From Octopus sinensis (lineage: Eukaryota): DNA of 64,000 nt. A program made the translations under genes and the position numbers. The notes under the pieces were generated by a model, which was not told where the DNA came from, did no database searches, and worked only from the letters and a program-made list of their open reading frames with translations. The stretch covers positions 6,386,001-6,450,000 of the forward strand of contig NC_043024.1 in assembly GCF_006345805.1 (NCBI RefSeq). The letters run 5' to 3'. Below are positions 29,806 to 55,073 of the stretch, one piece after another. Position 1 is the stretch's first letter. Each line of letters begins with the position of its first letter.

Positions 29806-31084
29806 GACTTGCTGATAGCGCAGCCAATGTCTTCTTTACCAAACAACAATTATCTGGAATTATAATTAGAAACAGAAAATTAGTGAAAGAGGAAAAGGGG
29901 AGAGGGTATAATAAACAAGTAAACAATAAAAATAAAAACAAATAAAAAAAATAGGGACTGCTGTGTGGTCAAAGAGCTTTCTTCCCAACTATATGGTCTT
30001 GGGTTCAGTCCCACTGAATGGCACCTTGGGCAAGTGTCTTCTATTATAGCCCTGAGGCAACCAAAAACTTGTGAGTGGATTTGGTAGATGGAAACTGTGT
30101 GGAAGCCCATTGTATATCTTTTTTTTTCTTGTTTCAGTCATTAAACTGTGGCCATGCTGGGGCACCAGCTTGAGGAATTTTTTGTCAAACTTAGCAATCC
30201 CAGCACTTATTTTTCTTTTAAAGCCTGGTACTTATTCTATCAGTCTCTTTTGCCAAACTGCTAAGTTATGGGGGATTAAAACAGTGGTGGGAGACAAGCA
30301 CAGACACAGAAACACACACAAATATATTGTTTTGTTCTTTTACTTGTTTCAATCATTTGATGGTGGTCATGCTGGGGCACCACCTTGAAGGGTTTTAGTG
30401 GAACAAATCAACTGCAAGAGTTATTTTTTTAAGCCTGGTACTTATTTTATCAGGCTCTTTTGCTGAACTGCCAAGTCATGAGGAATGTAAACACACCAAT
30501 ACTGATTGTCAAACGGTGGTGAGGGTGGGAACAAATACAGACAGACAGACAGACACACATACATGTGTATATATATCATCATCATCATCATCATCACCAT
30601 CATTTAACATCCGCCTTCCATACTGGCAAGGATATATATAGACATACACATTTGTGTGTGTGTGTCTTTATGTTTGTCCCTACCCTCATCACCATTTGAC
30701 AACCAGTCATATATACATATATATGGCGAGCTGGCAGAAACGTTAGCACACCAGGCGAAATGCATAGCCGTATTTCGTCTGGCGTTTTATGTTCTGAGTT
30801 CAAATGCCCCCTCCCCATCCACACACACACTGCTAGTTTGTTTACATCCCCCATAACTTAGTGGTTCGCTTGAGAGTTCAATAGAATAGGTATCAGACAC
30901 GAAAAATAAATAAGTACTGGGATCGAATTGTTTGACTAAACACTTCGAGGTGGTGCCCCAGTATGGCCACCAGTCCAATGGCTGAAACAAGAGAAAAGAA
31001 AAGGAAAACTGAACAGAAATATTTTTGTAAAACAGTTTTTAACTAACATGTGGCTCCCCTGGTGGACACGGTTATTACAATATT

Positions 31085-31745
31085 ACAAGGGAGGTAACAC
31101 TGTGTAACACGGTTTTTACCCTTGGGTAGCAACTGTTATTTCCTATTTGCTTATTCCTAGGAAGTATGGAAAATGTCTAATGCTTCCTTCAAGCTATGCT
31201 TTTGTTATGATATTTATTCAAACCCCAAAGAATCCCTCTCAACACATGACTATGATGTTCCTCCACAACTCCTGCTCATCATAAGAGATGCACACATTGT
31301 CAGCCACTAAAAAACATGCTCACGTGGTTAAGATCAAGCAAATCTGTGGTATTGAGCAGAATATTTGCTATAACGATATTTCTGCTTCAGCAACTTGGCA
31401 CTGAATCTGTGTGAAATGTAATGGAAAATAGGTCAGCTTCCAAACATCATCATGTCCAGGTCAGAAAAGCAAAGTTTAAAGGAACCAGTAGTGATTTCCT
31501 TTGATTTCTAGATAGAAGCAAATAGGACATAACTCTTACTGACCAAAGACAACAAGCAAATCTGTGGTATTGAGCAGAATATTTGCTATAATGATATTTC
31601 TGCTTCAGTAACTCAGCACTGAATCTGTGTGAAATGTAATGGAAAAAATAGGTAAATTTGAAAATGTTGATATCCAGGTCAGAAAAGTAAAATTTGATTT
31701 CCGGATAGGAGCAAATAGGAAATAACAGTTATTGACCAAAGACAA
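31085..31745 (+). repeat. Unclassified interspersed repeat with internal ~225-bp duplication; second copy at 46068-46530
   Basis: AAGCAAATCTGTGGTATTGAGCAGAATATTTGCT at 31335, 31554 and 46306. Confidence 0.7.
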
Positions 31746-32492
31746 AAAAGAAAAAAATAGAAGTCTTATAACACAATTATTTCATTTCATCCTAATAGTT
31801 GGCAGGATCCATCGTCATCACCATTTAAGGTCCACATTGTCCATGCTTGCATGGGTCAAACAAGGTTTATTTAGGCAGCTTTGCAACAGCCAGGTGCCTT
31901 CCCTGCTGCCAACCCTCACTTGTCTCCAAAGCAAGGTAACAATTTCCTAAAACCAGACATTTTTTTCATGAAAGACTAGAAACACCTCTTGTATGATGGT
32001 GATGCTCATTTACAACCATAACGTGATGCCAAGACAAGAAGACACACAGACATACAACACACAAAATACATACAAACACACACACAACACACACGTTTTA
32101 TACAATGAGCTTTAATCAGTTTCCTTTTACTAAATCCACACACAAGACTTTGGGCAGCCCAGGACCATAAAAAAGACACTTGTCTAAGGTGCCATGCAAT
32201 GGGACTGAACCCAAAACCACATGGTTAGGGAAGTGAATTATAATCCAAGGCAAAGCATCTCTGAATAAAGAACTAAATGGATGGTCATGACTGGAGCAAC
32301 AACTTTTGCTCAAAGGTCCATTACAGGGTTAAACAACAACAAGAGCAACAACTGTTGAAGTTTTATAGTAGTTGGCAGAGCTAGCTGTCTCTCCCGGGGG
32401 TTTATTTACCACTTCTCACAGCTCGTTAATCTCATAAATAATTAAACTGAAAGCCAACTAATTTTTGTTCATATTGCATGTGTGTGTATATA

Positions 32493-32544
<52 letters not shown>

Positions 32545-32560
32545 TAAATATAAATATATT

Positions 32561-32596
<36 letters not shown>

Positions 32597-32678
32597 CACA
32601 CACACTATATATCTGTCCAGCTCATGCCAGCATGGAAAACAGACATTAAATGATGATGATAATGATGATGATATATTT

Positions 32679-32712
<34 letters not shown>

Positions 32713-33444
32713 TATATACACATATACACAAACACATGCACATATGTGTGTGTGTGTATATATATATATATACACACACACACACATATATATTTATATG
32801 TGTGTGTATTTCCAGTTGTGAGATATAATTTATTTGACATTCCAATTGGCAATGAAAATACCTGCTCCATCACCACCACCACCACCACCACCACCACCAA
32901 TACCACTACCATAACTACTACTACTACTATTTCTATTGCCACCTCTCATTGACAATGGTAGGGTGGTGGTGTGTGCGATAGTACTGTTACACCATTATTA
33001 CTATCACCACCACCACCATAACCAAGTCAACAACATCATCTATGTGGTTACTCAACCTACTAGAAATAGAAGCCAGTTGACCTCAGATCACATCCTAAGA
33101 AGGTACATTAGATAATGTGGTCTTAGCTCTACACAGACAGTATAGTCATATCTGGAATACCTTTGATCATAGACCTCCTTCATCAGGCTTGACCTGGGGC
33201 TGAACAACAACAACAACAGCCATCACCAACGAACGAGGGACATTTTATGTGGTCAGTCAATGTGTTAGAAATAGTAGCTAAGTCTTGTTCATATCACATA
33301 CTGCCCTGTCTTAAAATAGATATCAGAATAAATATATGGTCTTGTGTTGGTTTGACATAGGAATAAGACAGGATGGTCACAGCTGGAAGGCCTTTGACAT
33401 ATGGGTGTTTAATCAGAGCGTGTCTTGGGTTAATCAACAAAGAC

Positions 33445-33895
33445 CACTACCACCACCACCATCAACAACCATTGCCATCTATACCACCACCATCAACATT
33501 ACTGCCAACCACCACCACCACCATCATCATCAACAGTAGCACAACCACAACCATCACCATCGCTAACACCACCTGCACCACAACCAACACTACCACCATC
33601 ACCAACACCAACATTACCAGCAGCACCACCACCACCATCACACTTACCAACAGGTCCATCATCACAACCACCACAACCACAACCATCACCATAGTTACCA
33701 ATAGGATCATTATCACTAGAACCACCATCACCACCCTCACCACTATCCCACCACCACATCCACCACCAGCACCACCACGACCATCACCCCCTCCTCACCA
33801 TCCACTACCACCATCCATTACCACCAGCACAATTACCAGTAGGACCCTCATCCCTACTACCACCACCACCACCTACACAACCACCACCACCTATT
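33445..33895. repeat. Degenerate (ACC)n low-complexity tract
   Basis: Imperfect CAC/ACC trinucleotide run producing spurious Thr/Pro/Val ORFs. Confidence 0.9.
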
Positions 33896-33947
33896 CCAAC
33901 ACTGGTAACCTTGGAAATCAAATAAATAAATAAATACACAAAAAAAC

Positions 33948-34170
33948 CTGAAATCTCTGAAAAATGCCATGGAGTATCAGCGTCAGTCTGTGATGGGAAA
34001 AGCTGTTGAAGGAAAGTCAGGTGGTTGGAACTGGTTCACATTTCTTAAATACCTTTCTCAAGAATTCAAAGTGTCCAACAGAATTTACATAGCAGAGCTA
34101 GGTTTCTTGGGGTTAGAGGAAGAGGAGGAGGAGAAGGAGCAGGAGGAGGGGGAGGAGAGTAACAACAGCA
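33948..34170 (-). other. Possible internal or alternative 5'UTR exon of the minus-strand gene
   Basis: Island of unique sequence ending in CAG|gtttt (weak donor at 33947). The 5' boundary is uncertain; candidate acceptors lie near 33988 and 34003. Confidence 0.3.
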
Positions 34171-34283
34171 GGTTGCAGACTTTTCTTTCTTTCTTTCTTT
34201 AAATTTTTCTGGTTGATTTTTGTGGTTAAAAATCTAATTTAAACCAGATATTAAAAAAAATAGACTTGGAATGAAAAATCACT

Positions 34284-34493
34284 TACTCTTTACTCTTTTA
34301 CTTGTTTCAGTCATTTGACTGTGGCCATGCTGGAGCACCGCCTTTAGTCGAGCAAATAGACCCCAGGACTTATTCTTTGTAAGCCTAGTACTTATTCTAT
34401 CGGGCTCTTTTGCCGAACTGCTAAGTTACGGGGACGTAAACACACCAACATCGGTTGTCAAACGATGTTGGGAGGACAAACACAGACACACAA

Positions 34494-34542
<49 letters not shown>

Positions 34543-34709
34543 TACGACGGGCTTCTTTCAGTTTCTGTCTACCAAATCCACTCACAAGGCTTTGGTTGGC
34601 CCGAGGCTATAGTAGAAGACACTTGCCCAAGGTGCCACACAGTGGGACTGAACCCGGAACCATGTGGTTGGTAAGCAAGCTACTTACCACACAGCCACTC
34701 CTGCGCCTA
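34284..34709 (-). mobile_element. tRNA-derived SINE family A (representative full copy)
   Basis: Minus-strand head AGGCGCAGGAGTGGCTGTGTGGTAAG...GGTTCAGTCCC (A/B boxes) with internal CA/TA microsatellite. Other copies at ~6010, 6988, 11979, 14751, 26155, 27085, 46746, 48394, 52060, 62350, 63803 (-) and 19263, 25345, 28560, 29957, 37870, 44650 (+). Confidence 0.9.
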
Positions 34710-34893
34710 TTGAAGCAAAAAAATTTATATTATCATTATTATTATTATGCTCAAATTCTGCCAGAGTTGACTTTACCTTTCATCCTTTCAGTGTTGATAA
34801 AATAAGTACCAGTTTCATACTGGGGTTGATGTAATTAACTATCCCCCTCCCCTAAAATTTCAGGCCTTGTGCCTTCAGTAGAAAGAATTATTA

Positions 34894-34936
<43 letters not shown>

Positions 34937-35143
34937 CATCAAGGTGTCAAGCTGGCAGAATCGGTAACACACTGGGCTTGCAGTATTTCGTCCGTCTTCA
35001 TGTTCTGAGTTCACATTCCGCCAAGACTTTGCCTTTCATGCTTTTGGAGTCAATAAATTAAGTACCAGTTGAGTATTGGGGTCGATGTAATCAACTCATC
35101 CCCTCCCCAAAAATATCAGGCCTTGTGGCAAAATTTGAAACCA

Positions 35144-35400
35144 TTATTACCTCCGCCTTGACGAAGACAGAGGTATTGTTTTCAGTGGTGTTTGTGTGTT
35201 TTTCTGTGGAGAAGATATCTCGAGAACCATTGAATGGATTCAGATGAAACTTCCAGGGATGTTTGGCCCCATGACTGAGACAAACTGATTAGATCTTGGG
35301 ACCAATCCAGCACCGGACAAAGATTCTGGATCATTTTTCCGTTCTTTTTCACTTAATCTTTGAGAGAAGTCGGGTCCATTGTTAGTATTGTCGAGTTTAT
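35144..35400 (+). mobile_element. Helentron-associated non-autonomous element (HINE/DINE-like) 5' end
   Basis: TTATTACCTCCGCC...GAGGTATTGTTTT subterminal hairpin followed by a GTTTGTGTGT tract. Confidence 0.55.
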
Positions 35401-36513
35401 TTCAATTATTCGAAAGCTAAAAAAACGATGCAAAGTGCATTGTGATCAGCAATGTATAACATCTTACAGTCTGGTTGATGCCATGAATATTATTATTAAT
35501 AATACAGGTAATAATAATATTGATATCTTTTAATTTTTACTTGTTTCAGTCATTAGACTGCGGCCATGCTGGGGCACCACTTTAATATCATTAATATTAT
35601 AACATTAACACTAGCAATATTGATATTATTAATATTACTATTGTCAATATGGAAGCAAGCTGACAGAATCATTACTATGCCAGGCAAAATGATGAGCGGC
35701 ATTTCATCCATCTGTTCTGAGTTCAAATTCTGCCGAGGTTGACTTTGCCTTTCATCCTTTCAGGGTCAATAAAATAAGTACCAGTTGAATACTGGGGTTG
35801 ATGTAATCAACTTACACCACCTCCCCTGAAATTGCTGGCCTTGTGCCAAAATTTAAAACAGATATTATTATTATTATTATCAATATTATAATTCACAATA
35901 TGTTACATTGGCACAAAGCCACTAATTGCAAAAATTTGTAGAGTTAACCCCAGAAAAACATTTAGTCTGGCGCTCCACCAATTAATTACCTTCCTGAAGA
36001 TGCAAGTTGTTGTTGTTGTTGTATAGCACTAGGGTATGCATACATTACATGCACATGTAGACATAATCATCATCATCATCATCACCCTTTAAATGTCCCT
36101 TTTTCCATGCTTGCATATAAGCATATATAAGCATTCATAGAAGCAGATTTTATTCAGCTGGATGCTTTTCCTGTCACCAAGCCTCACCTGTTTCCCAATG
36201 TCTGGATATTTTTTGAAAGGATGCTGAAAGTAAAGAACACAGCTTGCAGGATAGTGACACTCATTCACAAGTATCACACAATGACAAGACAAGGGGACAC
36301 ATCTCCGTCACTCACAAACCCACCTATACTCCTCCTACATGTACGAATATACGATTAGCCCTCATCTGAGTTGGCTTTTGAGTGCACTCAAATGACTTTG
36401 TTTGGCAGGGGACATAGTAGAAGACACCTGCGCAAGGTACCAAACAGCAGAACTAAATCTAAAACGTCTGTGCTTGGAAAGCGAATTTCACCACATACCC
36501 ATGCATGTACGTA

Positions 36514-36549
<36 letters not shown>

Positions 36550-36553
<4 letters not shown>

Positions 36554-37278
36554 TAAAACCTCACTTTACAAGGACCCGCTTCACAAGTTTTATTTTTCAA
36601 GCACAAGATCCAAATTTTTGAATGAAGTGCAAAAGTTTCTACTACTATCGCAAATGATGGTATGCACGAGTCTAGTGTGAGTGAAAGTGATTCAGAAAAC
36701 GATTATAATAATAGTAATAATATTTTTTTATCATAAATGATCTTGACATTCCTTTTATTTATTTTATTTATGCGCCCTTTTCAAGCTTATCCAGGCTCAT
36801 GGGCCCGGTTTCTGTGGCATATGTGTTCCCCCCAGCTGGATGGGACACCAGTCCATAACAGCGTTACTCAAGAAACAGGAAGAAAGAGTGAGAGAAAGAG
36901 TACAACAGGGGTCGCCACCACCCCCTGCCGGAGCCTCGTAGAGCTTTAGGTGTTTTCACTCAATAAACATGCATAACGTCCAGTCTGGGAATTGAAACTG
37001 CGATCCTCTGACTGCGAGTCTGCTGCCCTAACCACTGGGCCATTGCACCTCCACTGACATTCCTTTTACTTTACATAAAATATCCTTTACATTCTACTGT
37101 TATTTTATTGCTATTTACTTACAAGTATTATAAATTTTATAGGTAAAATATTTTCTTTGAAATGAATTACAATTTATAACATTACTACTATGTGTAACTA
37201 TTGCTCTGCTCTATGAGTTTTCATTTTATGAGCAGTCTCTGGGAACAAATTAACTCTTATATCAAAGCATTAATGTAT
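36550..37278. mobile_element. Tigger/pogo-like MITE interrupted by a SINE (36760-37054)
   Basis: CAGTAAAACCTC..TT.ACAAG terminus; TGACATTCCTTTTA duplicated around the inserted SINE. Confidence 0.5.
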
Positions 37279-38049
37279 ATCTATCTATCTATCTATCTAT
37301 CATCATTGTTTAACATCCGCTTTCTATGCTGGCATGGGTTGGATGTTTTGACTGAGGACTGGTGAGCCAGAGGCTGCACTAGGCTCAATCTGATCTGGCA
37401 GTTTCTACAACTGGATGCCCTTCCTAATGCCAACCACTCCAAAAGTGTAGTGGGTGCTTTTACATGACACTGACATGAGGGCCAATCAGACGGTTCTGGC
37501 AACAACCATGCTTGAAAGGTGTTTTTTTATGTGCTACCTGCATGGGAGCCAGTTTGGTGGCACTGGCAATGACCACATTCGAATGGTGCTTTTCACATGC
37601 CAGTGGCACGGAAGCCAATCCATGGCCCTTGCAACAAACATGCTTGGATGTGCTTTTAACGTTCCACTGGCACGAGTACCAATCAGGCAGTACTGTCATC
37701 AGCCATATGTTTTTGAAAGGTTGTATTCATCCTTTAATTGGAGTAATTTCTGAAGGATTTCGAACGTCGTTTCTTCATACTTTACTTTGAATTAGAATAG
37801 ATACGAAAATTTATATAAGTGTATTAAGTATATGATTTAACTTATTAAACAAAGTTTAACAAATCCTAGGCATAGGAGTGGCTGTGTGGTGAGTAGCTTC
37901 CTTACAAACCACATGGTTCCGGGTTCAGTCCCAATGCGTGGCATCTTGGGCAAGTGTCTTCTACTATAACCTCGGGCCGACCAAAGTCTTGTGAGTGGAT
38001 TTGGTAGGCGGAAACTAAAAGAAGCCTGTCGTATATATGTGTGTATATA

Positions 38050-38825
38050 TGTTGGACCTAAGAAGCATCAGTTGTGGTGTGCAAGAGAGACGTTTGCGCT
38101 GGTATGGTCATGTAGCGAGAATGGATGAAGATAGTTGTGTGAAAATGTGCCACATCCTAGCGGTTGAGGGAACCTGTGGAAGAGGTAGACCCAGGAAAAC
38201 CTGAGACGAAGTGGTGAAGCACGACCTTCGAACTTTAGGTCTCACTGAGGAAATGACTAGAGACCGAGACCTCTGGAAGTATGCTGTGCGTAAGAAGACC
38301 CGGCAGGATTAGTGAGACCATAACCCGTGGCCTCTACCTGGGATGTAGCCAGTCCACTTATGCATACCTTTCTTTCTTGTGACACAAACCCTAATTGTGA
38401 AGACCTGTTGAGGCAAGTGAAAATCGAAATCGATCAACATCAATGGAAATTGTAGCTGTGATACCAGTGCCGGTGGCACATAAGAGAACCGTCCGAACGT
38501 GGCCGTTGCCAGCGCCGTGCCGGTGGCACATAAAAAGCACCATCCGATTGTGGCTGATGCCAGCCTTGTCCGGCCCCCGTGCCGGTGGCACGTAAAAAGC
38601 ACCATCCGATCATGGCCGTTTGCCAGCCTCGTCTGGCACCTGTGCAGGTGGCACGTAAAAAGCACCCACTATACTCACGGAGTGGTTGGTGTTAGGAAGG
38701 GCATCCAGCTGTAGAAACATTGCCAGATCAGACTGGGCCTGGCGAAGCCTACTGGCTCCCCAGACCCCAGTTGAACCGTCCAACCCATGCTAGCATGGAA
38801 AACGAATGTTAAACGATGATGATGT
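38050..38825 (+). mobile_element. RTE-clade LINE 3' end
   Basis: RRLRWYGHVARM...GRGRPRKT.DEVVKHDL...RDLWKY, repetitive 3'UTR and (GAT)n tail. Confidence 0.9.
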
Positions 38826-39043
38826 AGGCTAAAATTTTTTTTTTCGAAAAAGATTTTATCAATGGCCAGCATATTAAAAAATACCTTTAAAGGTTAAATT
38901 TATAAACAACTTATAGGGCAAATGAAAGAATTTCTAATGCCAAATATGCTGAAATTAGACACAGTGTCCATAACCATTATAATTTTTCACAATACGCACG
39001 CTACTCAAAAAAAGCCGACAGAAATTTCTAAAACATTCTATTA

Positions 39044-39103
39044 TTACCATATCGGACCGATTTCAGGGTTAGTTCGTAAGAACCCTCCCTTCGTCAGTGA
39101 TAA
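39044..39103 (-). ncRNA. Type I hammerhead ribozyme motif (inverted copy)
   Basis: Minus strand reads TTATCA-CTGACGA-AGGG agg GTTC ttac GAAC taa CCCT-GAAA-TCGGTCCGA-TA-TGGTAA. Confidence 0.87.
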
Positions 39104-39886
39104 ATGTGGTAAAGAAATAAATGAGATACTTTGAGTAGCATGCGTATTGTGAAAAATTTCTCAAGGGGCTAAACATAGAGGGGACAAACAAGGACAGACA
39201 AAGGAATTAAGTCGATTATATCGACCCCAGTGCATAACTGGTACTTAATTTATTGACCTCAAAAGGATGAAAGGCAAAGTCGACCTCAGCAGAATTTGAA
39301 CTCAGATTATAAAGGCAGACAAAATACTGCTAAGCATCTTACTCAGCGCACTAATGTTTCTGCCAGCTCGCCGCTTTAAGTTTCGTTCATTGGAGTGTGG
39401 CCATGCTGGGGCACCACCATGAATGGCTGAATCAAAGAAACCAACCCTAGTACTTAGCATTTTTTTTCTCAAGTTTGGTACTTTAGAAATTTCTGTCGGC
39501 TTTTTTTGAGTAGCGTGCGTATTGTGAAAAATTATAATGGTTATGGACAATGTGTCTAATTTCAGCATATTTGGCATTAGAAATTCTTTCATTTGCCCTA
39601 TAAGTTGTTTATAAATTTAACCTTTAAAGGTATTTTTTAATATGCTGGCCATTGATAAAATTGTTTTTAGAAAAAAAAAATTTATCCTACATTAAATATA
39701 AATTTAATAGTGTTCACTTCTGGACTCTCTCACTCTGTGAGAGCCTCAGTTCAAATCGCACGTGTCTCAAATGGGCTGGAGTATTTCTATTTTGGATGTA
39801 TTTGGGGTACTTAGTTGTGCTCATGACTTAGTGTTTTGATTCTTCCATGGGTATGAGTAAGTATCTCATTTATTTCTTTACCACAT

Positions 39887-39946
39887 TTATCACTGACGAA
39901 GGGAGGGTTATTATGAACTAACCCTGAAATCGGTCCGATATGGTAA
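39887..39946 (+). ncRNA. Type I hammerhead ribozyme motif
   Basis: TTATCA-CTGACGA-AGGG...CCCT-GAAA-TCGGTCCGA-TA^-TGGTAA. All core nucleotides and three helices present. Confidence 0.85.
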
Positions 39947-40106
39947 TAATAGAATTTTTTAGAAATTTCTGTTGACTTTTTTCGAGTAGTGTGCGTATTG
40001 TGAAAAATTATAATGGTTATGGACAATGTGTCTAATTTCGGCATATTTGGCATTAGAAATTCTTTCGTTTGCCCTCATTTATAAGTTATATATATATATA
40101 TTTATA

Positions 40107-40138
<32 letters not shown>

Positions 40139-40366
40139 CACGTGTGTATATGTGTGTGCGAGTCTGTGTTTGCCCCTCCAACATCACTTGACAACTGATG
40201 CTGGTGTGTTTTACGTCCCCGTAACTTAGCGGTTCAGCAAAAGAGAACAATAGAATAAGTACTAGGCTTACAAAGAATAAGTCCTGGGGTCAATTTGTTT
40301 GACTAAAGGTGGTGCTCCAGCATGGCCACAATCAAATGACTGAAACAAGTAAAAGAGTAAAAGATT

Positions 40367-40801
40367 AAATTCAATCATATTTCACTTAAATGGAGGAGAT
40401 TAGATGTTAATATGGATGATAATTTTTTTTTTTATTTATGTAGCAATAAAATCGTTTTATACAGAAAGACAATAAATTTATTTTAAGAATCTGAATTGAC
40501 AAAAAGTACTCATTAGTAGCCAAAAACAAGAAAAAAACAAAACTCTTGTTTTAAAGAGACATGATTCAAAGTACAATAACACATCACAAAAATGAGTACG
40601 AACACCTTACCTGTGTAATCCAAACGTCTCTTTAGCATTTTTTCTTATTTTGGGCTTCTGATGAGTACTTTTTGACAATTCTTAAAATGAACTTATTGTC
40701 TTTCTGTATAAAACGATTTTAGAGCTACTTGAGTAAAAATAATCATCACCATCCATATTAACAGCTAATCTCCCCCATTTACGTAAAATATGATTGAATT
40801 T
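40367..40801. repeat. Older foldback palindrome with decayed hammerhead
   Basis: 40367-40560 versus 40625-40801 are diverged reverse complements. Confidence 0.75.
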
Positions 40802-42573
40802 GTTGAACTTTGTTTAATAAGTTAAATCATATACTTGTTTGTTCCTTCTCGAGCCAAGCCTGGCTCATTAGTGCTGGTTTCCTGGTTTCCTTGGTGTATA
40901 GGTTCCCCACCTGGACGGGACACTGGTCCATCACAGGTGAGCAGCAAGATGAATGAGGAAAGAGTCAGCAGAAGTTCGCCATTACCTTCTGCTGGAACCA
41001 TATGGAGCTTAGGTGTTTCACTCATAAACACACACATCGCCCGGTCTGAGATTCGAACCCATGATCCCTCGACCATGTACCTCCACAAATCATATACTTA
41101 CTATACCTGTGTGTGTGTGTGTGTGCGAGCAGGCCAACAGAAGAAAGAGTGAGAGAAAGTTGTGGCAAATGAGTACAGCAGGGATAGCCACCTACCCCTA
41201 CCAGAGCCTCGTGAAGCTTTTTAGGTGTTTTCACTCAATAAACACTCACAATGCTTGATCTGGGAATCAAAACAGCGATCCTACAACCACGAGTCCGCTG
41301 CCCCAACCACTAGGATATATATATAAATAATATATATATATATTATTTATATATAAAATGGATTTTTTTCAGTGAGAGCATAACAGGTGCGAAACCAGTG
41401 GTAACCTTCTGACTGGCCATAAACAATGACTACATTAAATAAATAAATAAATAAATAAATATACATATATATATATATATTTATATATATGTATTTTAGA
41501 ATGGATATGTGTGTATGTGTTATGTTTGCCCTCATCACCCTTTGACACCCGGTGTTGGTTTGTTTACATCCCCTTAACTTAGCGGTTCGCAAGAGAGATC
41601 AATAGAATAATTACGAGGCTTTTTTATTTATGTATTAGGGTCGATTCGTTCGACTAAACTCTTTAAAGCTGTGCCCCAGTATGGCCGCAGTCCAATGACT
41701 GAAACAAAGAAATGAAAAATAAACGATTCTATTATCTACAGTTTCGAAAACATGTTTTTCATTCCAAATATTTTCAGAATATTTCAGGCACAAAGAAACT
41801 GAAGCAAAGGCATCATTTTGGCTGCTACTTCTAACAGGTCGAATGGCAGAAGAGCCTGGTGTTCTATTAGTTTGGTCAGATGAGACAATGAAACGCTTCC
41901 GGGAAGGATGTTATCATCACAGATATTTCGTTTCTGATTGAATTAATTAAACGAACCCTTCTATATATTTAATTATTTTTAACGACAAAACACAAAATTT
42001 AATTTTGTGTATGTTTGACTTTTCGAAATGCTAATATAAAATGTTGTGGAAGCGTGTCAGTGACCAGGTCGCAATTGGTACGACGAAAATTTTTACCCCA
42101 AATAATAAATATTTAAGTGGAATTAACAGTTTTCCTGTGATTTTGAATGACTAATATGTGTTTCCCACGCTGCAACACAATGTCTCCCCAAACAAGTAGA
42201 TCTCCGAAATGTTACTTTTATTTTTCCGAATTAATTTCTACCTAAAATCGAAGACTGCTCCACAAGCCGATCTGCTATCTTATTTCAAAATATAATAATT
42301 TTTAACGTAAATTACTCCATCTGCTGTTAGTTAAGACATTCATCTCCTTTCTCGTTGGTCTTTCAAATCACAATACACGTTAGATGTCCGAAATATGAGC
42401 ACCACCCCCAAAATAATTACATCGAAGCTAAACAAAACTTTCAATGAACAGAATTTGCCGCAAGAAAAACCTGAAACATTTATGTAATTCAATTATTTCA
42501 CAAAACAACGACGTTAATTGATAAAGCTGGTAAACACGTTGAAAGGAATAATAATAATAATATTAATACTTAC

Positions 42574-42725
42574 AGACTGTTTAGTATGAATGGGAGATCT
42601 TTGTGTAAGGAAGCGGTCGACTGACAAACAAGGTAGTTGTGGGTGTGGGTGTGAGAAATTGAATTAAGGAAACTAATTGAATCAAGGGGAATAACTCTAA
42701 CTACTCCGAACCGACGAGAGACTCA
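42574..42725 (-). other. Probable non-coding first exon of the minus-strand gene (start approximate)
   Basis: Minus-strand donor GTAAGT at 42573; ATG-free unique sequence adjacent to the GC-rich motifs. Confidence 0.5.
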
Positions 42726-44961: not shown

Positions 44962-45802
44962 ACAGGGTGCAGTGAATACTTTGTCTAAATTACACAAAAG
45001 TGAAAATAACCCTGATATCTCATTTTAACAGATATATTTACCAAAATAGTATAAAAATATCTTAAAATACTAAAAGAGTAAATTTATTCAATAAAATCGC
45101 CATTGGCTTCAACCACAGCCTTCAGAAGACTTCAGAATCTCCTGCAACTCTTCTGGACAGTCTCCTTTCTTAAGTTGGTAAATGCTGCCATAATCCTTGC
45201 CTTTAGTTTATCTTTGGTGTTACAAGGAGTTTTGTTGGTCTCTTTCTCAATTGGGCCCCACACATAATAATCAAGGGGGTTGCAGTCTGGGGAGTTAAGT
45301 GGCCAGATGTTAGGGGTGATGTGGTCGCAGAAATTGTCTGACAGCCATGACTGGGTTCTCCTGCTTGTGTGGCATGGTGCAGAATAGGGTCTTCCAGCAG
45401 ACACCTTCTTGACCCAGGGCAGCACGTGATGTAGACCTCTGTGTTGAGTGTGAGGCTGTGTGGCAAGATGAATGGAGGCATAACGTCGCCATCACTAGTG
45501 ATCACTCCAAACATCATGATGTTCACTGGATGTTTGATTTCCATCACTCTTGGTACGTGCACTGTCTTCAGATTGACTCCCAAACACTCTGAAATGTTCG
45601 TGTTGGAGCTTCTGGTGCAAATGCTAAGCAGGTACAGCATGTCGTTTCCAAATTTCTGGCAGAGTGAATCTGCATCTGTTTTTCTCACAGACAGTGCCCA
45701 ACTGATCCTACTATACTGTGTAGTCAACAAAATCAAAAGCAGACAAGGTGCATGCTTGAAATTGAAAATATAAAATGGCAACAATTTGCCCATTGCACCT
45801 TG
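44962..45802 (-). mobile_element. Internally deleted Tc1/mariner-like transposon in the ERCC5 5'UTR intron
   Basis: CAGGGTGCA/TGCACCTTG termini; MMFGVITSDG and WPLNSPDCNPLDYYVWG motifs. Confidence 0.85.
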
Positions 45803-45875
45803 TGTGTGTGTGTGTGTGTATATTGGCTATTATTATATAGAGGTTTATTTATATACTTTCAGATTTATTCTACCA

Positions 45876-45963
45876 ATGGGAGTTCACGGCCTTTGGTCTC
45901 TGCTTCAACCTGTTGGGAAGCCAGTTCGACTGGAAGCACTCGAGGGCAAAATTCTTGCCATTG
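45876..45963 (+). CDS. ERCC5: ERCC5/XPG coding exon 1 (XPG N-domain start)
   Basis: ATG 45876 gives MGVHGLWSLLQPVGKPVRLEALEGKILAI, matching the XPG/Rad2 N-terminus. 88 coding nt; preceded by acceptor tttcag (45862) and followed by U12 donor GTATCCTTT. Confidence 0.97.
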
Positions 45964-46658
45964 GTATCCTTTCCACTCATTCTTTGTTTCCTGTTTTTGT
46001 GCTTTTGTTTATTTTTATTTTTTTAGTGTCACATCAACTGCATACTTACATATTTCCACTGGACCAATAACACAAGTTTTGTCCTTCGGTAGCAATTGTT
46101 ATTTCCTATTTGCTTACCCCTAGAAAGTATGAAAAGAGGCTAATATTTCCTTCAAGCTATGCTTTTCTTACATTTATTCAAATCCCCAAGAATCCCTCTC
46201 AATGCATGGCTGTGATGCTCCCCAACCACTCCTGCTTATCATCAGAGATGCATATTTTGTCAGCCACTAAGGGACATGCACAAATGGTTATGGTCAAATA
46301 ACTGAGAAGCAAATCTGTGGTATTGAGCAGAATATTTGCTATAATGATATTTCTGCTTCAGTAACTCAGCAATGAATCTGTCTGAAATGTAATGAAAAAT
46401 AGGTCAGTTTAAAAACATTGATGTCCAGGCCAGGAAAGCAAAATTTGAAGGGACCAGTCGTGATTTCCTTTGATTTCTAGATAGAAGCAAATAAGAAATA
46501 GCACTTAGTGATCAGAGACAAAATACACAATGTTATTGGTTTATGGTTTTTCCGAAGATTGGGAGTGACAAGGGAGTCACTGCAACTCTGCACAGAACAA
46601 ATATTAAGATATTACAAATTCTTTCATCAAACACCATTGCTCTCCCTCCCTCTGTGTT

Positions 46659-46732
<74 letters not shown>

Positions 46733-48027
46733 TATATATTTATATATACTCTTTTACTTGCTTCAGTTATTTGACTGTGGCCATGCTGGAGCACCGCCTT
46801 TAGTCAAGTATATCGACCCCAGGACTTATTCTTTGTAAGCCTAGTACTTATTCTATCAGTCTCTTTTGCCGAACTGCTAAGTTATGGGTACGTAAACACA
46901 CCAGGTTGATAAGCAAGCTACTTACACAAAATGTTTCTATCCACTTTTCCATGCTTGCATGGGTCAGAAAGAATTTGTTGAGGCAAACTTTCTACAGCTG
47001 GAGGCTCTTCCTGTCACCAACCCTCTGTTTCCAAGAAAGCTAATGTTTCCCATGGTCAGACACAATTTTCTTGGAAAACTGGAAACAAACAACACCACTT
47101 GTATGATGGTGATGCTCATTTACAACTATCACCAAAGAAGCACACACACACACGTGTGTGTGTGAGTGTGTGTGCTACATCTCTGGAAAAACCATTAATA
47201 TAATGAAAAATTTGAAATGGTTTATTCAGAAAGAGCATAACTCACAGATTTCAGAACACTTAAAATTTTTCAGATATCTTAATATTTGAACAAGATACAC
47301 CATTTTTCTCAGGTAAGCAGACATGACCCAGAAAAGTGGCCTTTTTGAGAACCGAAAACTTTTCACAACTTTAACCTTGTCTCATTCATAAAACTAGTAG
47401 AACCCTTGATATTCAAACTGCAGTCATTTACTACAGATTGTATGGAAAAACATCCAGTTTTGACCTTTGAACCCATTTTTCTCAATTGTTCATTTATTGA
47501 CATCCAATGGGTGTTTTCCTTTGCACCATTGCATACGTGGTAAATAATCCTTTCTACTAAAGGCACAAGGCCTGAAATTTTGTGGGAGGGGACTAGTCGA
47601 ATACATCGACCCCAGTGCGAAACTGGTACTTAATTTATTGACCCCAAAAGGATGAAAGGCAAAGTCGACCTCGGCGGTATTTGAACTCAGAATATAAAGA
47701 CAGACGAAATACCTATTTCTTTACTACCCACAAGTGGCTAAACACAGAGAGAACAAACGGATTAAATCGATTATATCGACCCTAGTGCGTAACTGGTATT
47801 TATTTAATCGACCCCGAAAGGATGAAAGGCAAAACCGACCTTGGCAGAATTTGAACTCAGAACATAAAGACGAAATACTGCTAAATATTTCGCTTGGTAA
47901 GCTAATGATTTTGCCAGCTTGCTTCCTTATATGGTAAATAATGGCAGTGAAGGTTATCAAAGTGATAATAATGGTGACAGCCATACCGTTTAGTCCGTAT
48001 CTTTTCCTTAACATTTTTTTACTCCAG
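45964..48027 (+). other. U12-type (minor spliceosome) GT-AG intron
   Basis: 5' site GTATCCTTT at 45964 and branch site TTTTCCTTAAC at 48002-48012, 15 nt before the end of the intron (CAG 48025-48027). Confidence 0.95.
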
Positions 48028-48203
48028 ATGTCAGTCTCTGGCTTCACCAAGCTGCGAAAGGAATGAGGGATCGTTCTGGAAATCCTGTCCCCAACGCCCA
48101 CCTTATCGTACTGTTCAACCGTGTCTGCAAGCTGCTTTACTACCGGATCAAACCAATATTCGTATTCGATGGTGGTGTACCAGTGTTGAAATGGCAAACT
48201 TTG
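48028..48203 (+). CDS. ERCC5: ERCC5/XPG coding exon 2
   Basis: (D)[58 protein letters not shown], containing the FEN1/XPG-family PIFVFDG motif. cag/gtaagt boundaries, 176 nt, phase-consistent. Confidence 0.97.
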
Positions 48204-48926
48204 GTAAGTGGGATTCTGTTTTCCTAATCTCTGTAGGAAATGGTTGAGTGAGGATTAGACATTGGAAGTAGGGAGACAATCGTACATCATAAGAATTCTA
48301 ATTTTGAAACAAGACCAGCAATCTTCACAGGAAAGTCATTCACATCGACACCAGTGTTTGATTGGTACTTATTTTATCATCCTTCAAGGCAGATACTCTT
48401 TTACTTATTTCAGTCATTTTGACTGTGGCCATACTGGAGCACTGCCTTTTAGTCAAGCAAATTGACCCCAGGACTTGTTCTTTGTAAGCCTAGTACTTAT
48501 TCTATCGGTCTCTTTTGCTGAACCGCTAAGTTACGGGGACTTAAACACACCAGCATCGGTTGTCAAGCGATGCTGTGAGGACAAACACATGTGGTTGGTA
48601 AGCAAGCTACTTACCACACAGCCACTCCTGCGCCTACATGAAGACAAGTGTTTTGCTAAACAACACAATGCGTCACTTGGTCCAGGAATTGAAACCACAA
48701 TTGTACAATCCTGAGTGCAACACCCTAACCACTAAGCCATGTGCCTCCACGCATGCTGGCATACTGGGAAAATTACATGACAGTGTTGTCAGATGGCTAC
48801 ATGGTGGCTTGCTGGTTACATTGCTACATGATGGTGAGACAGTGTGTACATGTGCACATCTCTGATTTAGGTTGATTGGGGTAACTGAATACAGACCATG
48901 GATTATAGGAGAGAACACTGGATTAA

Positions 48927-50000
48927 CCCTTTTGTTACTATATTTCTGACCAAAATACACCCCTTATGTGTTTCAATTAATTTCTACTATAATCATAAAT
49001 TTAGTCTGGTTTCATTAAACAACTATAACTTTTTTATTTATTAATATATTAATGTGATTTTTGGAAGATAATTTAATGAAATGTTCTCAACCAATTCTAT
49101 ACTATAATTTTTGTCACAAAGTGACTCTAATTGCAGGTAGATACAGGTAAATTGAACAAAATATAAAATTATTAAAATTTTGTTCAAACATCGCTATAGA
49201 AAATGGGTTATTAGCTAATATTCAATTGGGTATACAACAAAATTTTACGATAGAATTTGTTATTCTGGGTAACTTTCTGATACCCATAATAATATTTATG
49301 GCCAAATAGTCTTAATTTCATTTAAGGTTGTGGGAAACCACAAACTATCCTTTCTTTCGCTGTTTACATTTAGCATAACGGTTCGTTTCTGCTGTAATGA
49401 TTTCAAATAGGCTCATTCGAAAAAGTAAAAAGAAATAGTCTAAGGCTTTACTCTCCTGGGAAAGTCTGTGGCTTGGTCCAGTTTCTTCATAAAAATCACC
49501 GAAAGAAACAGTTTTTAAATTTTCACTCCATTCAGGTGCCAATCCATTTTCTTTATCGCTGTCGGAGCTCTCGGATTCACTGTTTTCACTTTCGGAAAAT
49601 GAAACATCAGATTCATTATCAAATACCACGTGCTTTTTTTTTTTCAGTCATAAAGTTAGATTTATCAAGGTCTTCAGTAGAAAATCCTTCGAATTCTGAC
49701 TCGCTGCTTGATATAATGAAATTCGTATCCATTTTTTGTCAGAATTACAAATTTTGATAACAATAGGAACAAATTTCGGAAAAAAATCTCCCAAAATTCA
49801 CGGAATTAAAATTACACTTCGATCGTTGTACAAAACTGTAGATGGACTGTTTACGAAGTATAATCAGTGTTTTCACGAATGTACTAAAGAGATTTGCTCT
49901 GATATTCTCATTTAAATATGAATAGATAAATACGGGCGGGTTTGGTCACATTAACCAAAATTTTTTTCGGGCTGCTTTGGGCGGTTTGGTAACGAAAGGG
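48927..50000 (-). mobile_element. Internally deleted piggyBac element
   Basis: TTAA target duplication (48923, 50001) and CCCTTT.GTTAC TIRs. Acidic N-terminus plus TGP...LDYFFL.F....I.AETNRYA of PGBD-type transposases. Confidence 0.9.
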
Positions 50001-50682
50001 TTAACCATTAAGCAAAATAAGCATGTGCTTTGGGCATCGGGGGAAGTGGTGGGGAGGGACACAGAAATGGTAACTGGTTTACAGCACAAATGAAATCACT
50101 TTAAACTTGCTAAAATAATATTCTGTGTCAAATATATTCTCCCTTGGATAGGATGCCAGTCAGTTACAGGATTACTAAATTTTGCACGGCTTAGTGGTTA
50201 GAATGTTGGACTCATGATCGTAAGATAGTGGTTTCAATTCCTGGATTGGGCAACATGTTGTGTTCTTGAGTAAATCATTTCATTTCACATCGCTTCAGTT
50301 CACTCAGCCAACAAAATGAGTTGTAATCCTTTGACTGATTGGCAGCCTATCCAAGAATATGATTGGAAATATAATTTTTCAGTCTTCATGGTGTTATAGT
50401 GAAGATTTGATCAAAGACTTTGCAATTAAGAAAAGTAGGAGAAAACTTGTAAAATATAAATAAAATGAAAATATACAGAACTAAACATTATTCTCCATCT
50501 TACTGTTAGTTTTGTTTCACTTTGAAAAATAAAAATATATTTTATGGTTTATTATTGTTTATATTTTGAATTACAAATATATGGCGGCACCAGAATCTTT
50601 TAAGTGCTCAGGGCCTCTATGGGTCTTAATCCAGCCCTGATAGGAGATGGTTACCATCTTTGAGGTAGTGTGAGCATAATAC

Positions 50683-50896
50683 AAGGGGCTAAATACAGAG
50701 AGGACAAACAAGGACAGACAAACGGATTAAGTTGATTATATCGACCCCAGTGTGTAACTGGTACTTAATTTATCAACCCCGAAAGGATGAAAGGCAAACT
50801 CGACCTCGGCGGAATTTGAACTCAGAACGTAACGGCAGACGAAATACAGCTACGCATTTCGCCCGGCGTGCTAACGTTTCTGCCAGCTTGCTGCCT
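50683..50896 (-). mobile_element. tRNA-derived SINE family B (Meta-domain-like core) with 17-bp TSD
   Basis: Core GCCTTTCATCCTTTCGGGGT.GATAAATTAAGTACCAG; TAGTGTGAGCATAATAC duplicated at 50666 and 50897. Other copies at ~5701, 19421, 34940, 35655, 39160, 47545. Confidence 0.88.
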
Positions 50897-51715
50897 TAGT
50901 GTGAGCATAATACTGCCTTATGTTTGATTTGAACCTGTTAGTTGTAAATCATGAATGCAATGTTAACCCCTTGACTACTTAATTAAATTTCATGACTATT
51001 CCTGAAATGATATTAATTATCCACCCAAAAAAACAGAACTGATATTCTCTGCTTCTAAAAGTATTTGATTCTTGCCCTGCAAAGAGATGTTTCATGAAAA
51101 AGGTTTAGAAAAATCTCAAAAACTGTCTTTTGTAAAAAGTGTCACTGAGGGTGTCTCTGCTTCTTGCAGAAAAAGGGAGAGGGTTTGTCCAAACCATGGA
51201 GTAAAACCTCTAACCACTTGCTGCAGTTAATGGTAGCATTGGTGTGGGTGCTGCTGCCAAGTAAAATGCTCTGGTGATGGTACTACATAAATAGCAGTTG
51301 GTACACTCTGTGGAGTGGGTGGCATTAGGAAGGGCATCCAGCCATAGAAACCATGCCAGAACAGACTATGGAACCTGGAGTGGTTCCTGGCCTTACCAGT
51401 TCTTACCAGTCTAGCCATCCAACCCATGCCAGCTTGGAAAATACATTAAATGATGATGAGGAGGAGGAGGAGGATTAAATACTGTGTATTGTGTACCTCT
51501 GTCCTCATGTTTGTTGACTTCCAACAAATCTCAGTATGTCTTGCTCTCTCTCTTTCTATCTATCTACTTATCTCTCTCTCTCTCTCTCTCTCTCTTTCTA
51601 TCTATATACTTATATATATCTCTCTCTCTTTCTATCTATCTACTTATCTCTCTCTCTCTCTCTGTCTACCTACTTCTCTCTCTCTCTATTTATCTGTCTT
51701 TCACTTCTCTCTCAG

Positions 51716-51960
51716 GCTCACCGTCGTGAACAAAAAGAAACTGCTGCTGATAAATCAGGTGAAATTTCCAACAAGCTTCTCCACAATATTCTAAAACAGC
51801 AACTCTTGAACAAAACCATTGAGAAGAACAGCCCCAAAAAGAAAGGTGGTAATAGTAATGCTGAGGAATCCCCTTCAAAAACTGTTGCCCGCCTCATCTC
51901 TTCTAAACCTCGCCAACGGGACTTGTTTGAACTGGATGAACTCCCAGAAACAAGCCAGAA
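51716..51960 (+). CDS. ERCC5: ERCC5/XPG coding exon 3
   Basis: AHRREQKETAADKS...DLFELDELPETSQ(K). Supplies the conserved RR pair after the N-domain and a DLF.L..LP motif. Polypyrimidine-cag/gtgagt, 245 nt. Confidence 0.92.
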
Positions 51961-52924
51961 GTGAGTTGCTTTGTTTGACAGAATTCTTGGGTTTGGGAAA
52001 AATTTGTTTTGGGGGTGGTTGTTTGCTTTTTTTTTTTTCACATTTATTTTAATATTTTATCTTTTACTGTGGCCATGCTGGGGCACTGCCTTGAAGAATT
52101 TTTGGTCAAATGAATCAACCCTAGGGCTTTCTTTTTCTTTCTTAAACTTGGTACTTATTTTATGTGTCTTTTGCCAGATCACTATGTTATGGGGGATGTA
52201 AACACACCAACAGGGGTTGTCAAGCAGTGGTAGAGGACAAACACACAAATACACACACACACATGACAGGCTTCTTTCAGTTTCCTTCTACCAAATCCAC
52301 TCACTATTGCCTCACTGCCTGAGGCAATAGTAGAAGACACTTGCCCAAGGTGCCACACAGTGGGACTGAACTCGGAACCATGTCGTTTGTTTTTTTTATC
52401 TTTTACTCGTCTCAGTCATTAGACTGCAGCCATGCTTGGGTTCTGCCTTGAAGAATTTTTAGTTGAAAAAATCAACTCCATGGAAGAGGGACCTCTAGTT
52501 TCCTTCCATCAGATTTAAGAATTATAATTTCATAGTTACTTTTTGTAAACAAACTTTCCATGTGCGTTTTCTATGATTATTTGGTAAGCGGTGCCAAATT
52601 TTACACTTTCATAAATAATAATAATAATAATGATATTTCTATAAGCTTAAAGCAATCATCATGCATTGACCAAGGTAAAATAGTCTAATATTGGGGCATA
52701 TAAGCCCCCAATGGAAAAAAAGTAGGGTTTGCCATATGCACGGAACTCAAACATACATACATACATACATATATATATGAGAAGAAAATGGAGATTGGAA
52801 AGATAATAATTGTTTATTATTAACAGCCAATTAATCATCATCCCCTACAGCTGTTTCAATTAATGTTAAGTAAATATGAATTAAATATTCATACGACCTG
52901 AGCATAATATCTTCAGAGAGAAAA

Positions 52925-53700
52925 AAATGTGGTGAGAATGGATGGGGATAGCTGTGTAAAAAAGGGTCACACCCTAGTGGTTGAGGGAACCTGTGGAAGA
53001 GGTAGACCTGGGATGAGGTGGTGAAGCACGACCTTCGAACATTAAGCCTCACCGAGATAATGACTAATGATTGAGACCTTTGAAAATATGATGTGCTTGA
53101 GAAGACCCGGCAAGCCAAGTGAGACCATAACCTGTGGCCTATGCCAAGGGTGTAACCAGCCAACTTATGCATACCTTTCCTTCATTGGACACTAAACTCT
53201 GTTTGCGAAGACCTGTTGTGAAATTGAAATCAAAATCAAATTCAATGACAGCACCGCATGACTGGCATCTGTGCTAGTGGAGCGCTAAGAGCACTATCCA
53301 AGCGTGATCGTTGCCAGAGCAGCTGACTGGCTTCCATGCCAGTGGTATGTAAAAAGCACCATTCAAGCATGATCATTACTAGTGTCACCTTACTGGCACA
53401 TGAAAAAATATTTGAGCAAGGTTATTGCCAGTGCCGCTGGACTGGCTCCTGTGCAGGTGGCATGTAAAAAACACCATTTGAGCGTGGCTGTTGCCAGTAC
53501 CGCCTGACTGGCCCTCGTGCCAGTGGCATATAAAAGCACCCACTACATTCTTGGAGTGGTTGGCATTAGGAAGTGCTTCCAGCTGTAGAAACACTGCCAG
53601 ATCAGGTTGGAGCCTGGTGCAGCCATCTGGTTCACCAGTTCTCAGTCAAATCGTCCAACCCATGCCAGCATGGAGAGCAGACGTTAAATGATGATGATGA
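52925..53700 (+). mobile_element. RTE-clade LINE 3' end (second copy, ERCC5 intron)
   Basis: Homologous to 38050-38825, with (GAT)n tail. Shorter tails of the same family at ~622, 18890, 28310, 37300, 51300 and 56625. Confidence 0.88.
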
Positions 53701-53834
53701 CACACACACACGCACACTGATTTGAGTGATTTCACTATGAGGATGTATGTTTCCCCTCCAATAGTTTCTTGCTTATTTTATCTACTTTGGGGTGAAGTAA
53801 GTCAAAGATGACCTGAAACATAACATGCTATAAA

Positions 53835-54635
53835 TCAATGGTCCTCAATCAGGATCCAATATGACCCTTGGACACCTGCAATAAATCACTTTTATTTCTA
53901 CAATACACAAAATATTTTAATAATTTATTTTTTCACACAATTCCTAATAAATCTAAACCAAGGGTTTTCAGCCATTTTTTTAATCTTTGGACCCCTTTGG
54001 TTACTATTTTATTCTGGTGGACTCCCATAGTCATTCAATGTTTAAAAACTAGTTTTATAGTAACTTCTTTCAAAATCCCTATTTTATTTTTCACACATTA
54101 ATTTGTGTAGGTTGAATTATGTAAAATGTTAGAAACCTAGCTGTTTCTTGCAATACATCCCAATACATAAATCTAAATTAGGGGTTCCCAACCATTTTTT
54201 TCTATGAACTCTCTTTGATTACTATTTTTTCAGGGGCCCTTAAAATACTGCTGTAGGTCCCCAATTTACTATTTTGCTTGGTTGGACCCTCTTTTATTAC
54301 TATTTAATTCTGGTGGACTCCCATAGCCATTCAATGCTTAAAAACTAGTTTTATAGAAACTTCTTTCAAAATTCCTATTTTGCTTTTCACACATTCATTT
54401 GTGTAGGTTGAATTATGTCAAATGTCAGAGCAAGAAACCTCACTGTTTTTTATACATACCAATGCAGACAGAAAAAGGCAAGATTTTTGCTTACCACACA
54501 GCCACTTCTGCACCTAAAGGAAACATAAAGACAGACAAAATTCCATTGAGCATTTCACCCGGCACACTGAGGGTCCAGTAGAGTAGAATAGGAACTGAAG
54601 GGATCCATAGGTAAAAAAATGGTTGAGAACCACTG
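53835..54635. mobile_element. Nested hAT-like MITE fragments (CAGTGGTTCTCAA-type termini); related at 11566 and 57030-57670
   Basis: GGTTGAGAACCACTG end at ~54621-54635; internal ~130-bp duplication (54000 versus 54298). Confidence 0.55.
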
Positions 54636-54739
54636 ATGTAAACAAATCCCACAAATAATTTCATCCAACACTTCACCAATTCTACCCAACTCTCTGCCAC
54701 CCCTTTATTTATGCTTTGTTTTGTTTTCTAATTGTGAAG

Positions 54740-54797
54740 ATACTTTGATGAGCTGAATGAGGAAGACCCTTGGGATCACCACCATTCCATGTTAGAT
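54740..54797 (+). CDS. ERCC5: ERCC5/XPG coding exon 4 (58 nt)
   Basis: (K)YFDELNEEDPWDHHHSMLD; aag/gtaagt. It restores frame between the phase-2 end of exon 3 and the phase-0 start of exon 5. Confidence 0.8.
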
Positions 54798-55073
54798 GTA
54801 AGTTAATCTTTTTTGGCCCCTTTTATTTTCACCTTTTTCCTGACGCTTCCTTTCACCAACCATCTCTCCACAAACCTACTTATTTGTCCTGTCATCTATC
54901 TATAGACATACAGACCTGGTTTCTATTTTCAGTCTTATCACCAAAGTATGTATATATATCTATCTATTCATTTACTAAACTGTCTATCTTTATCCATCCA
55001 TCCATCTGTATATATATTTGTTTCCATCCATCCGTCTAGCTATATCTATTTGCCTCTATCTATCTATTACTCT

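Follow-up and report, generated by a model that had tools for sequence, protein, structure and literature searches.

The stretch examined here (hereafter the window) comprises 64,000 nucleotides of contig NC_043024.1 of Octopus sinensis, and all positions are counted from its first letter. Repeat comparison within the window delimits an element at 38822-40085, made of a partial tandem array on the plus strand and an inverted copy on the minus strand. A preliminary description of this DNA had reported a 476-nt period, an inverted copy and one hammerhead core per strand (39887-39946, plus; 39044-39103, minus), all of which were found where it had placed them; the tandem plus inverted layout likewise stands, but the start of the element has to be moved from 38826 to 38822. 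The direct repeat (39482-39599 and 39958-40075) shows 95% identity at a spacing of 476 nt, and the inverted arms match at 95% (38915-39131 against 39859-40075) and 96% identity (38822-39032 against 39482-39692). From left to right, the element begins with a 310-nt inverted and 5'-truncated arm (38822-39131, minus), which adjoins a host repeat at the latter's (GAT)n tail, has its 3' end at the position called site 2 below, with a tail of about 90 nt, and holds a type I hammerhead in the intact form of the family (39044-39103, minus). The inversion junction consists of a 29-nt monomer fragment (39130-39158, plus; 97% to 39505-39533), followed by a 323-nt block foreign to the element (39159-39481), mostly host repeats, namely an interspersed repeat at 39161-39378 (85% to 50682-50898 and 19426-19636), a piece of a second repeat at 39380-39418 (minus) and the remaining stretch 39419-39481. 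This central block is either a later insertion or captured filler; a 9-nt repeat flanking it was considered as a target duplication and rejected, since it overlaps the host repeat's own start.

A full monomer period of 476 nt without ORF then follows (39482-39957, plus), with internal sites 1 and 2 near 39605 and 39695, respectively. It includes an ATG followed by a donor-like GTAAGT motif (39847-39862, plus), which is kept in diverged subfamilies and lies directly upstream of the second type I hammerhead (39887-39946, plus). The partial second unit (39958-40085, plus) ends at initiation site 1, carries no tail and abuts a (TA)n / (TATG)n target microsatellite (40086-40135), so that the plus array (39482-40085) amounts to about 1.27 units only, with one hammerhead on it. 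The minus arm and the first unit share a 5-nt deletion and further changes that are missing from the second unit, an asymmetry that speaks against a pure circle model for this copy and would require either later conversion between the arms or a non-identical dimer template. Just downstream of the element lies another inverted repeat (40367-40801; 124-nt arms at 87%, plus inner 44-nt arms), the end of which also matches 37826-37864 in inverted orientation; CUGAUGA is present there, with no full core.

The preliminary description had placed the element inside an intron of a minus-strand gene, and a 628-nt contig of RNA type joins the two sides of that intron: originating from run X10 (RNA by guess), it covers 42570-42641 and then runs on into 29820-29849, with a single mismatch over 30 letters. 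Its two parts meet at GT..AG (GT at 42573, AG at 29854), which defines a host intron of 12,720 nt (29854-42573, minus); the non-coding exon before it ends at 42574 and the coding exon after it starts at 29853. The support consists of one contig in 1 of 4 runs and 30 loose letters, and the animal sequenced need not be a carrier of the insertion. The 130-aa ORF at 29805-29416 (minus) is 90% identical to an uncharacterised protein of Octopus bimaculoides, the one other relative found, and the searches returned no Pfam family, no longer homologue and no usable Atlas match for it. The distances of the element to the two splice sites are about 2.5 kb and 9 kb. Divergent from this host gene, an XPG/ERCC5-like gene occupies 45774-64000 (plus), with exons in 45774-46070 and 48012-48227 that match Pfam XPG_N.

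Both cores follow the CUGANGA / GAAA / NUH arrangement with three helices. CUGACGA stands at 39893-39899 (plus) and 39097-39091 (minus), and each copy has a 4-bp outer helix II, GAAA, the helix III strand UCGGUCCGA, an AUA triplet and a 6-bp helix I; cleavage is predicted after A39940 on the plus strand and 3' of 39050 on the minus strand. A descriptor scan of the 64 kb on both strands retrieved these two hammerheads and no others, including none corresponding to the 'first' one implied by the title of the preliminary description. Rfam gave no hammerhead match in 38800-40080 even at E<=10, and only microsatellite noise over the whole window among the best 150 of 158 matches; the hammerhead call therefore rests on the descriptor and on covariation. 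In an alignment of 42 hammerheads from several subfamilies, 95% of the cells are paired, compared with 30-47% in slid controls, and 14 of 20 pairs, distributed over all three helices, show compensatory change on both sides, which 0 of 500 shuffles reach; the 42 cores were drawn from 67 accepted by a pairable-helix pattern, and relatedness and this choice of motifs inflate these counts. Whole-helix swaps between subfamilies are plainly visible, helix III remains near-palindromic throughout, and deviations from the majority letter number 7 in 575 cells of the core vs. 627 in 14443 cells elsewhere. To judge from these alignments, the hammerhead is real as a structure, and the maintenance of the fold by compensatory change in subfamilies down to about 58-76% identity implies selection on it.

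The predicted behaviour of isolated molecules is less favourable. In isolated 60-mers helix III is not predicted (P 0.00) and the active fold lies 4-5 kcal above the minimum; for the palindromic helix III strand, a dimer of -14.5 kcal/mol is predicted. A dimeric mode is described for metazoan type I hammerhead motifs in the available text of PMC4209133, with which the weak monomer fold and the strand dimer of these models fit. The active register of helix II has a probability of 0.09 in the plus copy vs. 0.99 in the minus copy: in the plus copy, inner helix II has A in place of C, and a slipped, inactive register is therefore predicted to be favoured. As a point of comparison, cleavage was obtained with 1 of 9 dimers according to the available part of a recent preprint (bioRxiv 10.64898/2026.07.22.740005).

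Regarding the host transcript, the minus core is sense in the pre-mRNA, as the preliminary description had pointed out, but the intron cutting it envisaged receives no support from folding. In the predicted fold of the pre-mRNA over 38800-40100, the minus core pairs letter for letter with 39887-39946, that is with the antisense of the plus core, with an active-pair probability of 0.0; fully paired in this way, it is unlikely to cut the intron. About 270 long-range pairs are predicted between the arms, and together with a real intron and one core in sense orientation this gives some substance to a co-opted insertion, in which the sense hammerhead would cut the host intron or the long hairpin would control editing or splicing. 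We regard such a role as very unlikely, given that the copy is one of hundreds of similar decayed ones with no sign of constraint, that its sense core is predicted to be sequestered and that both splice sites are kilobases away. With one hammerhead per strand, the locus also lacks the two consecutive hammerheads by which the preprint mentioned above defines 'active' copies in its available text, and no monomer release is therefore expected from it. On the basis of these models, the window locus is probably inert.

Beyond the window, other genomic copies had been called for by the preliminary description, and hundreds of dispersed ones exist. An exact 21-nt core motif has 781 matches in the 2.72-Gb genome, a second exact motif of the family 1040 and an exact motif of a sister subfamily 1280, each against 0 for the reversed control. 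Searching with the unit gave 3287 first-look candidates, of which the best 40 were scored, the top ones showing 86-92% identity over most of the length. Periods range from 467 to 481 in 14 loci, with 454 and 498 in two others. The mean divergence from the majority letter is 5.0% (78 passes), and the subfamily of the window is therefore not recent. Sister subfamilies at 76%, 67% and 58% identity are likewise ORF-less tandems, one of which forms longer arrays than the subfamily of the window. A loose type I pattern (7-nt helix III middle, AUA) found 3794 matches in the genome vs. 34 in the control, belonging to several unrelated families. In all subfamilies seen, copies that reach past site 2 run into the next monomer: units join directly, the element contains no ORF, and an ORF for a reverse transcriptase (RT) plus GIY-YIG endonuclease between the repeats is absent. 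Low GC, head-to-tail units, a hammerhead per unit and no ORF or LTR are the sequence features by which non-LTR retrozymes are recognised, and the element has them all.

Contigs resembling the family occur in 4 of 4 runs guessed as RNA, on both strands and none of them spanning; contigs as such are silent on strand, level and circularity. The listing of 6 joints for contigs of these runs includes no splice joint that starts at the GTAAGT motif. With respect to window positions 39836-39896, contigs of runs X3 and X6 lack about 53 nt, among them the donor-like motif and helix I's 5' strand; this gap is that of a deleted family copy elsewhere, deep in those runs.

The ends of the copies bear on the mode of insertion. 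They were surveyed in a 3'-anchored sample of 78 loci, 77 of them with arms and 125 arms in total, in which one locus was given twice (L198/L199) and which partly overlaps the other sample. The 3' ends fall at site 1 in 60 arms, at site 2, about 90 nt away, in 56, and elsewhere in 9. Copies are 5'-truncated, with a median arm length of 213 nt, and arms occur on both strands in 44 of the 77 loci. A second set of 75 loci, sharing some members with the first, has a TA run after 98 of its 121 called ends. Of its clean inverted insertions, 24 of 28 combine site 1 on one strand with site 2 on the other (p=1.8e-4), 9 of 37 two-stranded loci having been dropped from this count for extra pattern matches; the window locus obeys the same rule, its plus arm ending at site 1 and its minus arm at site 2. 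Two consecutive cleavage sites, as monomer release would require, are spanned by 3 of 125 arms only, and two consecutive hammerheads are found in 16 loci of the 75-locus sample. The cleavage site is read through in at least 70 of the 125 arms and 5' ends are not enriched there (2 vs. about 4 expected in the 125 arms). An apparent peak of 5' ends at 75-99 was discarded, since it reflects an indel in the reference at which the alignments break.

The silence of Rfam and the AT-rich, repeat-dense surroundings could suggest a local minisatellite with a fold-back made by DNA recombination, or an artefact of assembly, as the preliminary description had itself considered. With arms that differ by 2-6% and a layout with the same two ends recurring in those 44 of 77 loci, on several contigs, this is hardly credible. 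The pattern is instead close to what Penelope-like elements (PLEs) show. In the anole PLE, two internal initiation sites bound an optional tail, a property called unique to PLEs, and both strands of AT-rich DNA are cut and extended, according to the available text of PMC11167929; PLE copies combine tandem and inverted arms, a tail at one end and a (TA)n bias in that of PMC8557442. As read from the copies themselves, 5' truncation, inverted arms and the two-site tail are thus a Penelope-like signature, here borne by an element fitting the description of non-LTR retrozymes.

The preliminary description had likened the layout to the pLTR architecture of Penelope-like elements and proposed looking for an autonomous ORF attached to it. 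None was found, considering 67 PLE loci and 190 family loci. The partner search used a Hydra/Neptune-like endonuclease query and a Neptune-type RT query, with the best 150 of 8600 and of 12151 candidates scored. Comparison of the monomer with 50 + 17 PLE loci revealed no significant DNA similarity to their terminal repeats, only weak low-complexity matches, and tblastn of 7 PLE proteins on the 190 family loci gave scattered neighbours at varied positions and no consistent fusion. Near two PLE loci (L109 and L142), independent retrozyme copies occur without fusion to the PLE. Another locus (L166), where an endonuclease remnant lies 500 nt upstream of a sister copy, was rejected as a fusion because of the simple repeats in between. 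Broken PLE-like endonuclease remnants, identified by motif and by the endonuclease query, are also present in the window at 3912-4756 (minus) and 21047-21400 (minus), with no hammerhead by the descriptor.

The genome does contain intact RT plus GIY-YIG elements of 781 and 784 aa (L142-L153), in two families, one of which is 97-98% identical among copies. These proteins have a Cys linker of the Neptune/Nematis kind, a likeness read from sequence features. The 3' ends of the Neptune-type elements fall at two sites and run into (TA)n, and their pLTR has a hammerhead-like motif of the U3-A8 variant, as read by eye. They are candidate helpers for the octopus repeat. One of their pLTRs even shows the succession of ATG, donor motif, hammerhead and two 3' sites that characterises the monomer, which lends some weight to the repeat being the terminal repeat of an unsampled autonomous PLE, with truncated pLTRs in the window, all the more as the protein searches covered the best 150 candidates of each list. 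This is nonetheless improbable: in each of the subfamilies seen, another monomer follows where a copy reaches beyond site 2, and the 190 loci yielded no consistent ORF fusion. As no attached PLE ORF was found in the loci covered, the repeat counts as an element without an ORF and not as the pLTR of some coding element.

Concerning the template of such insertions, comparisons between units are instructive. Tandem passes are more alike within an insertion than between loci (0.949 vs. 0.910; higher in 28 of 30), as are inverted passes (higher in 33 of 34), in alignments trimmed of TA flanks and leaving out poly-T and end regions. Sharing of minor variants within an insertion occurs 96 times, where 16.6 would be expected. 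Over 30 comparisons, upstream units do not differ from downstream ones in any fixed manner, recurrent differences running both ways, and the variants of subfamilies occur in both units. Comparisons of three copies at a time, 15 in number, yielded 34 derived letters present in every copy, with even sharing between pairs (4/5/5). A distant sister (L160; G000:C1:21828992-21831523) forms a six-core array of 495-nt period with 5 full units without substitution, the 5' end of which is at most 1 nt from the predicted cleavage site, a single case. A separate and very young hammerhead repeat of about 476-nt period (L158, G000:C1:38173717-38180698; L159, L171 and L172), whose likeness to the unit of the window is no greater than that of shuffles, has 14 tandem cores at 99.9% identity plus an inverted arm and ends in (TA)n. 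Its array-private variants are fixed across units, with identities of 0.999 within vs. 0.986 between arrays, and by this measure the young family has probably been recently active. Private variants shared within an insertion are as expected from the reiterative copying of one monomer, as far as the sequences tell. A ligated circle would be the simplest template and is a likely one, template jumping or homogenised linear arrays being less probable, and circles are described as shown for the retrozymes of coral, mussel and axolotl in the available text of PMC7229834.

We lean towards source arrays with at least two hammerheads being transcribed, cut at AUA and ligated into circles of about 476 nt, as the preliminary description had suggested for longer arrays. 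The same element could also spread without any circle, from uncleaved linear read-through of tandem arrays or by RT template jumps, the hammerhead playing little part. In the anole PLE, hammerhead mutants insert normally in vitro and unprocessed RNA is the main substrate (available text of PMC11167929), the monomer fold disfavours the active form, and the asymmetry at the window locus fits a non-identical linear dimer. The lack of a fixed upstream/downstream difference in the 30 comparisons, with subfamily variants in both units, the selection implied by compensatory change across subfamilies and the circles of the three animals named above argue in the other direction and make this linear route rather unlikely, albeit a serious contender.

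Altogether, the locus is very probably an aged copy of an abundant ORF-less tandem repeat with a predicted type I hammerhead, i.e. a non-LTR retrozyme, likely inserted in trans by a PLE and likely inert in its present place. The Penelope-like and retrozyme affinities proposed in the preliminary description are in this sense upheld by the dispersed copies, the tandem and inverted arms, the covarying hammerhead and the PLE-type two-site 3' ends. According to the proposed mechanism, source arrays with two or more hammerheads would be transcribed, the transcripts would be cut at AUA, probably as dimers via the palindromic helix III, and the resulting monomers would be ligated into circles of about 476 nt. 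A Neptune-type RT/GIY-YIG protein would nick both strands of an AT microsatellite and reverse transcription would start internally, at site 1 on one strand and at site 2 on the other, and would continue around the template, so that each arm receives 0.1-2 units. The joining of the two truncated cDNAs would produce the head-to-head layout with a tail at one end only. At the window locus, the antisense arm is transcribed first and the host-sense core would be locked with it in a long hairpin.

The available text of PMC7229834 describes non-LTR retrozymes of mussel, coral and axolotl with the same organisation, that is ORF-less, AT-rich, head-to-tail units with a type I hammerhead each, thousands of motifs per genome and co-occurring PLEs. 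The octopus monomer is longer, about 476 nt vs. about 170-400 nt, although inside the 51-972 bp reported in the available text of the 2026 preprint, and the arrays of the octopus subfamily are short, rarely with two cores. The frequent inverted arms, the two-site tail and the (TA)n targeting of the octopus family are absent from the description of PMC7229834 as far as its available text goes. The retrozyme class and its PLE origin are both already published (PMC7229834; bioRxiv 10.64898/2026.07.22.740005, as far as available). In its accessible portion, the preprint reaches the same conclusion, that retrozymes are non-autonomous PLE derivatives, and reports copies in introns, many of a monomer or less; its link rests on pLTR similarity and co-occurrence in 35 mostly vertebrate genomes, whereas the octopus link lies in the insertion signature, no pLTR homologue having been found. 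A report of octopus or cephalopod retrozymes was not found in the literature covered, which excludes key supplements and tables (PMC7229834, PMC4209133 and the preprint) and the repeat databases, in which the octopus family may already be catalogued.

The endonuclease-bearing (EN+) PLEs Neptune, Poseidon and Naiad share with the octopus element the partial tandem, the inverted 5'-truncated arm and the tail at one end, as well as two internal initiation sites, AT-rich or (TA)n targets and a type I hammerhead whose helix III is palindromic, as described in the available text of PMC8557442, PMC11167929 and PMC4209133. The octopus element differs from them, within the same sources, by having no RT-EN ORF and a tail of about 90 nt vs. 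30-40 nt. Its hammerhead contrasts with the minimal form described for EN+ PLEs in the portions available: helix I has 6 bp, helix II is bulged and extended with an A-U closing pair, the helix III strand measures 9 nt and the triplet is AUA. Chlamys elements of the non-autonomous kind, MRC1 among them, are likewise ORF-less PLE derivatives with pLTRs and head-to-tail copies in the available text of PMC8557442; they generally resemble their own autonomous family at the 3' end, and hammerheads are missing from most Chlamys elements, according to the same text.

On its own, the window locus is of minor importance. Through the family, cephalopods join the animals known to have retrozymes, as far as the literature covered shows, and the two-site tail, a mark of mechanism, connects a retrozyme devoid of ORFs with PLE enzymes, a link for which earlier studies relied on co-occurrence and terminal-repeat similarity. 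More tentatively, and somewhat against our expectation, the family might be an old, still-moving lineage of circular-RNA parasites without surviving parent, which would have kept the hammerhead and the two initiation sites, a dimeric Neptune-type enzyme priming one site of a circle from each strand of the target. If so, the 24-of-28 pairing and the array-private variants would be direct genomic evidence that PLE insertion is two-headed and templated by circles, and how retrozymes and PLE tandems originate could be tested in vitro with the 14-core arrays of 99.9% identity and the intact helper ORFs. Since the genome contains both young arrays and intact candidate helpers, the role of circles as templates could be put to a direct test. 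As regards tandem repeats of other kinds in the window, a 1.5-kb purine-rich array at 22028-23575 is built of a 17-nt unit with a higher-order period of 487 nt.
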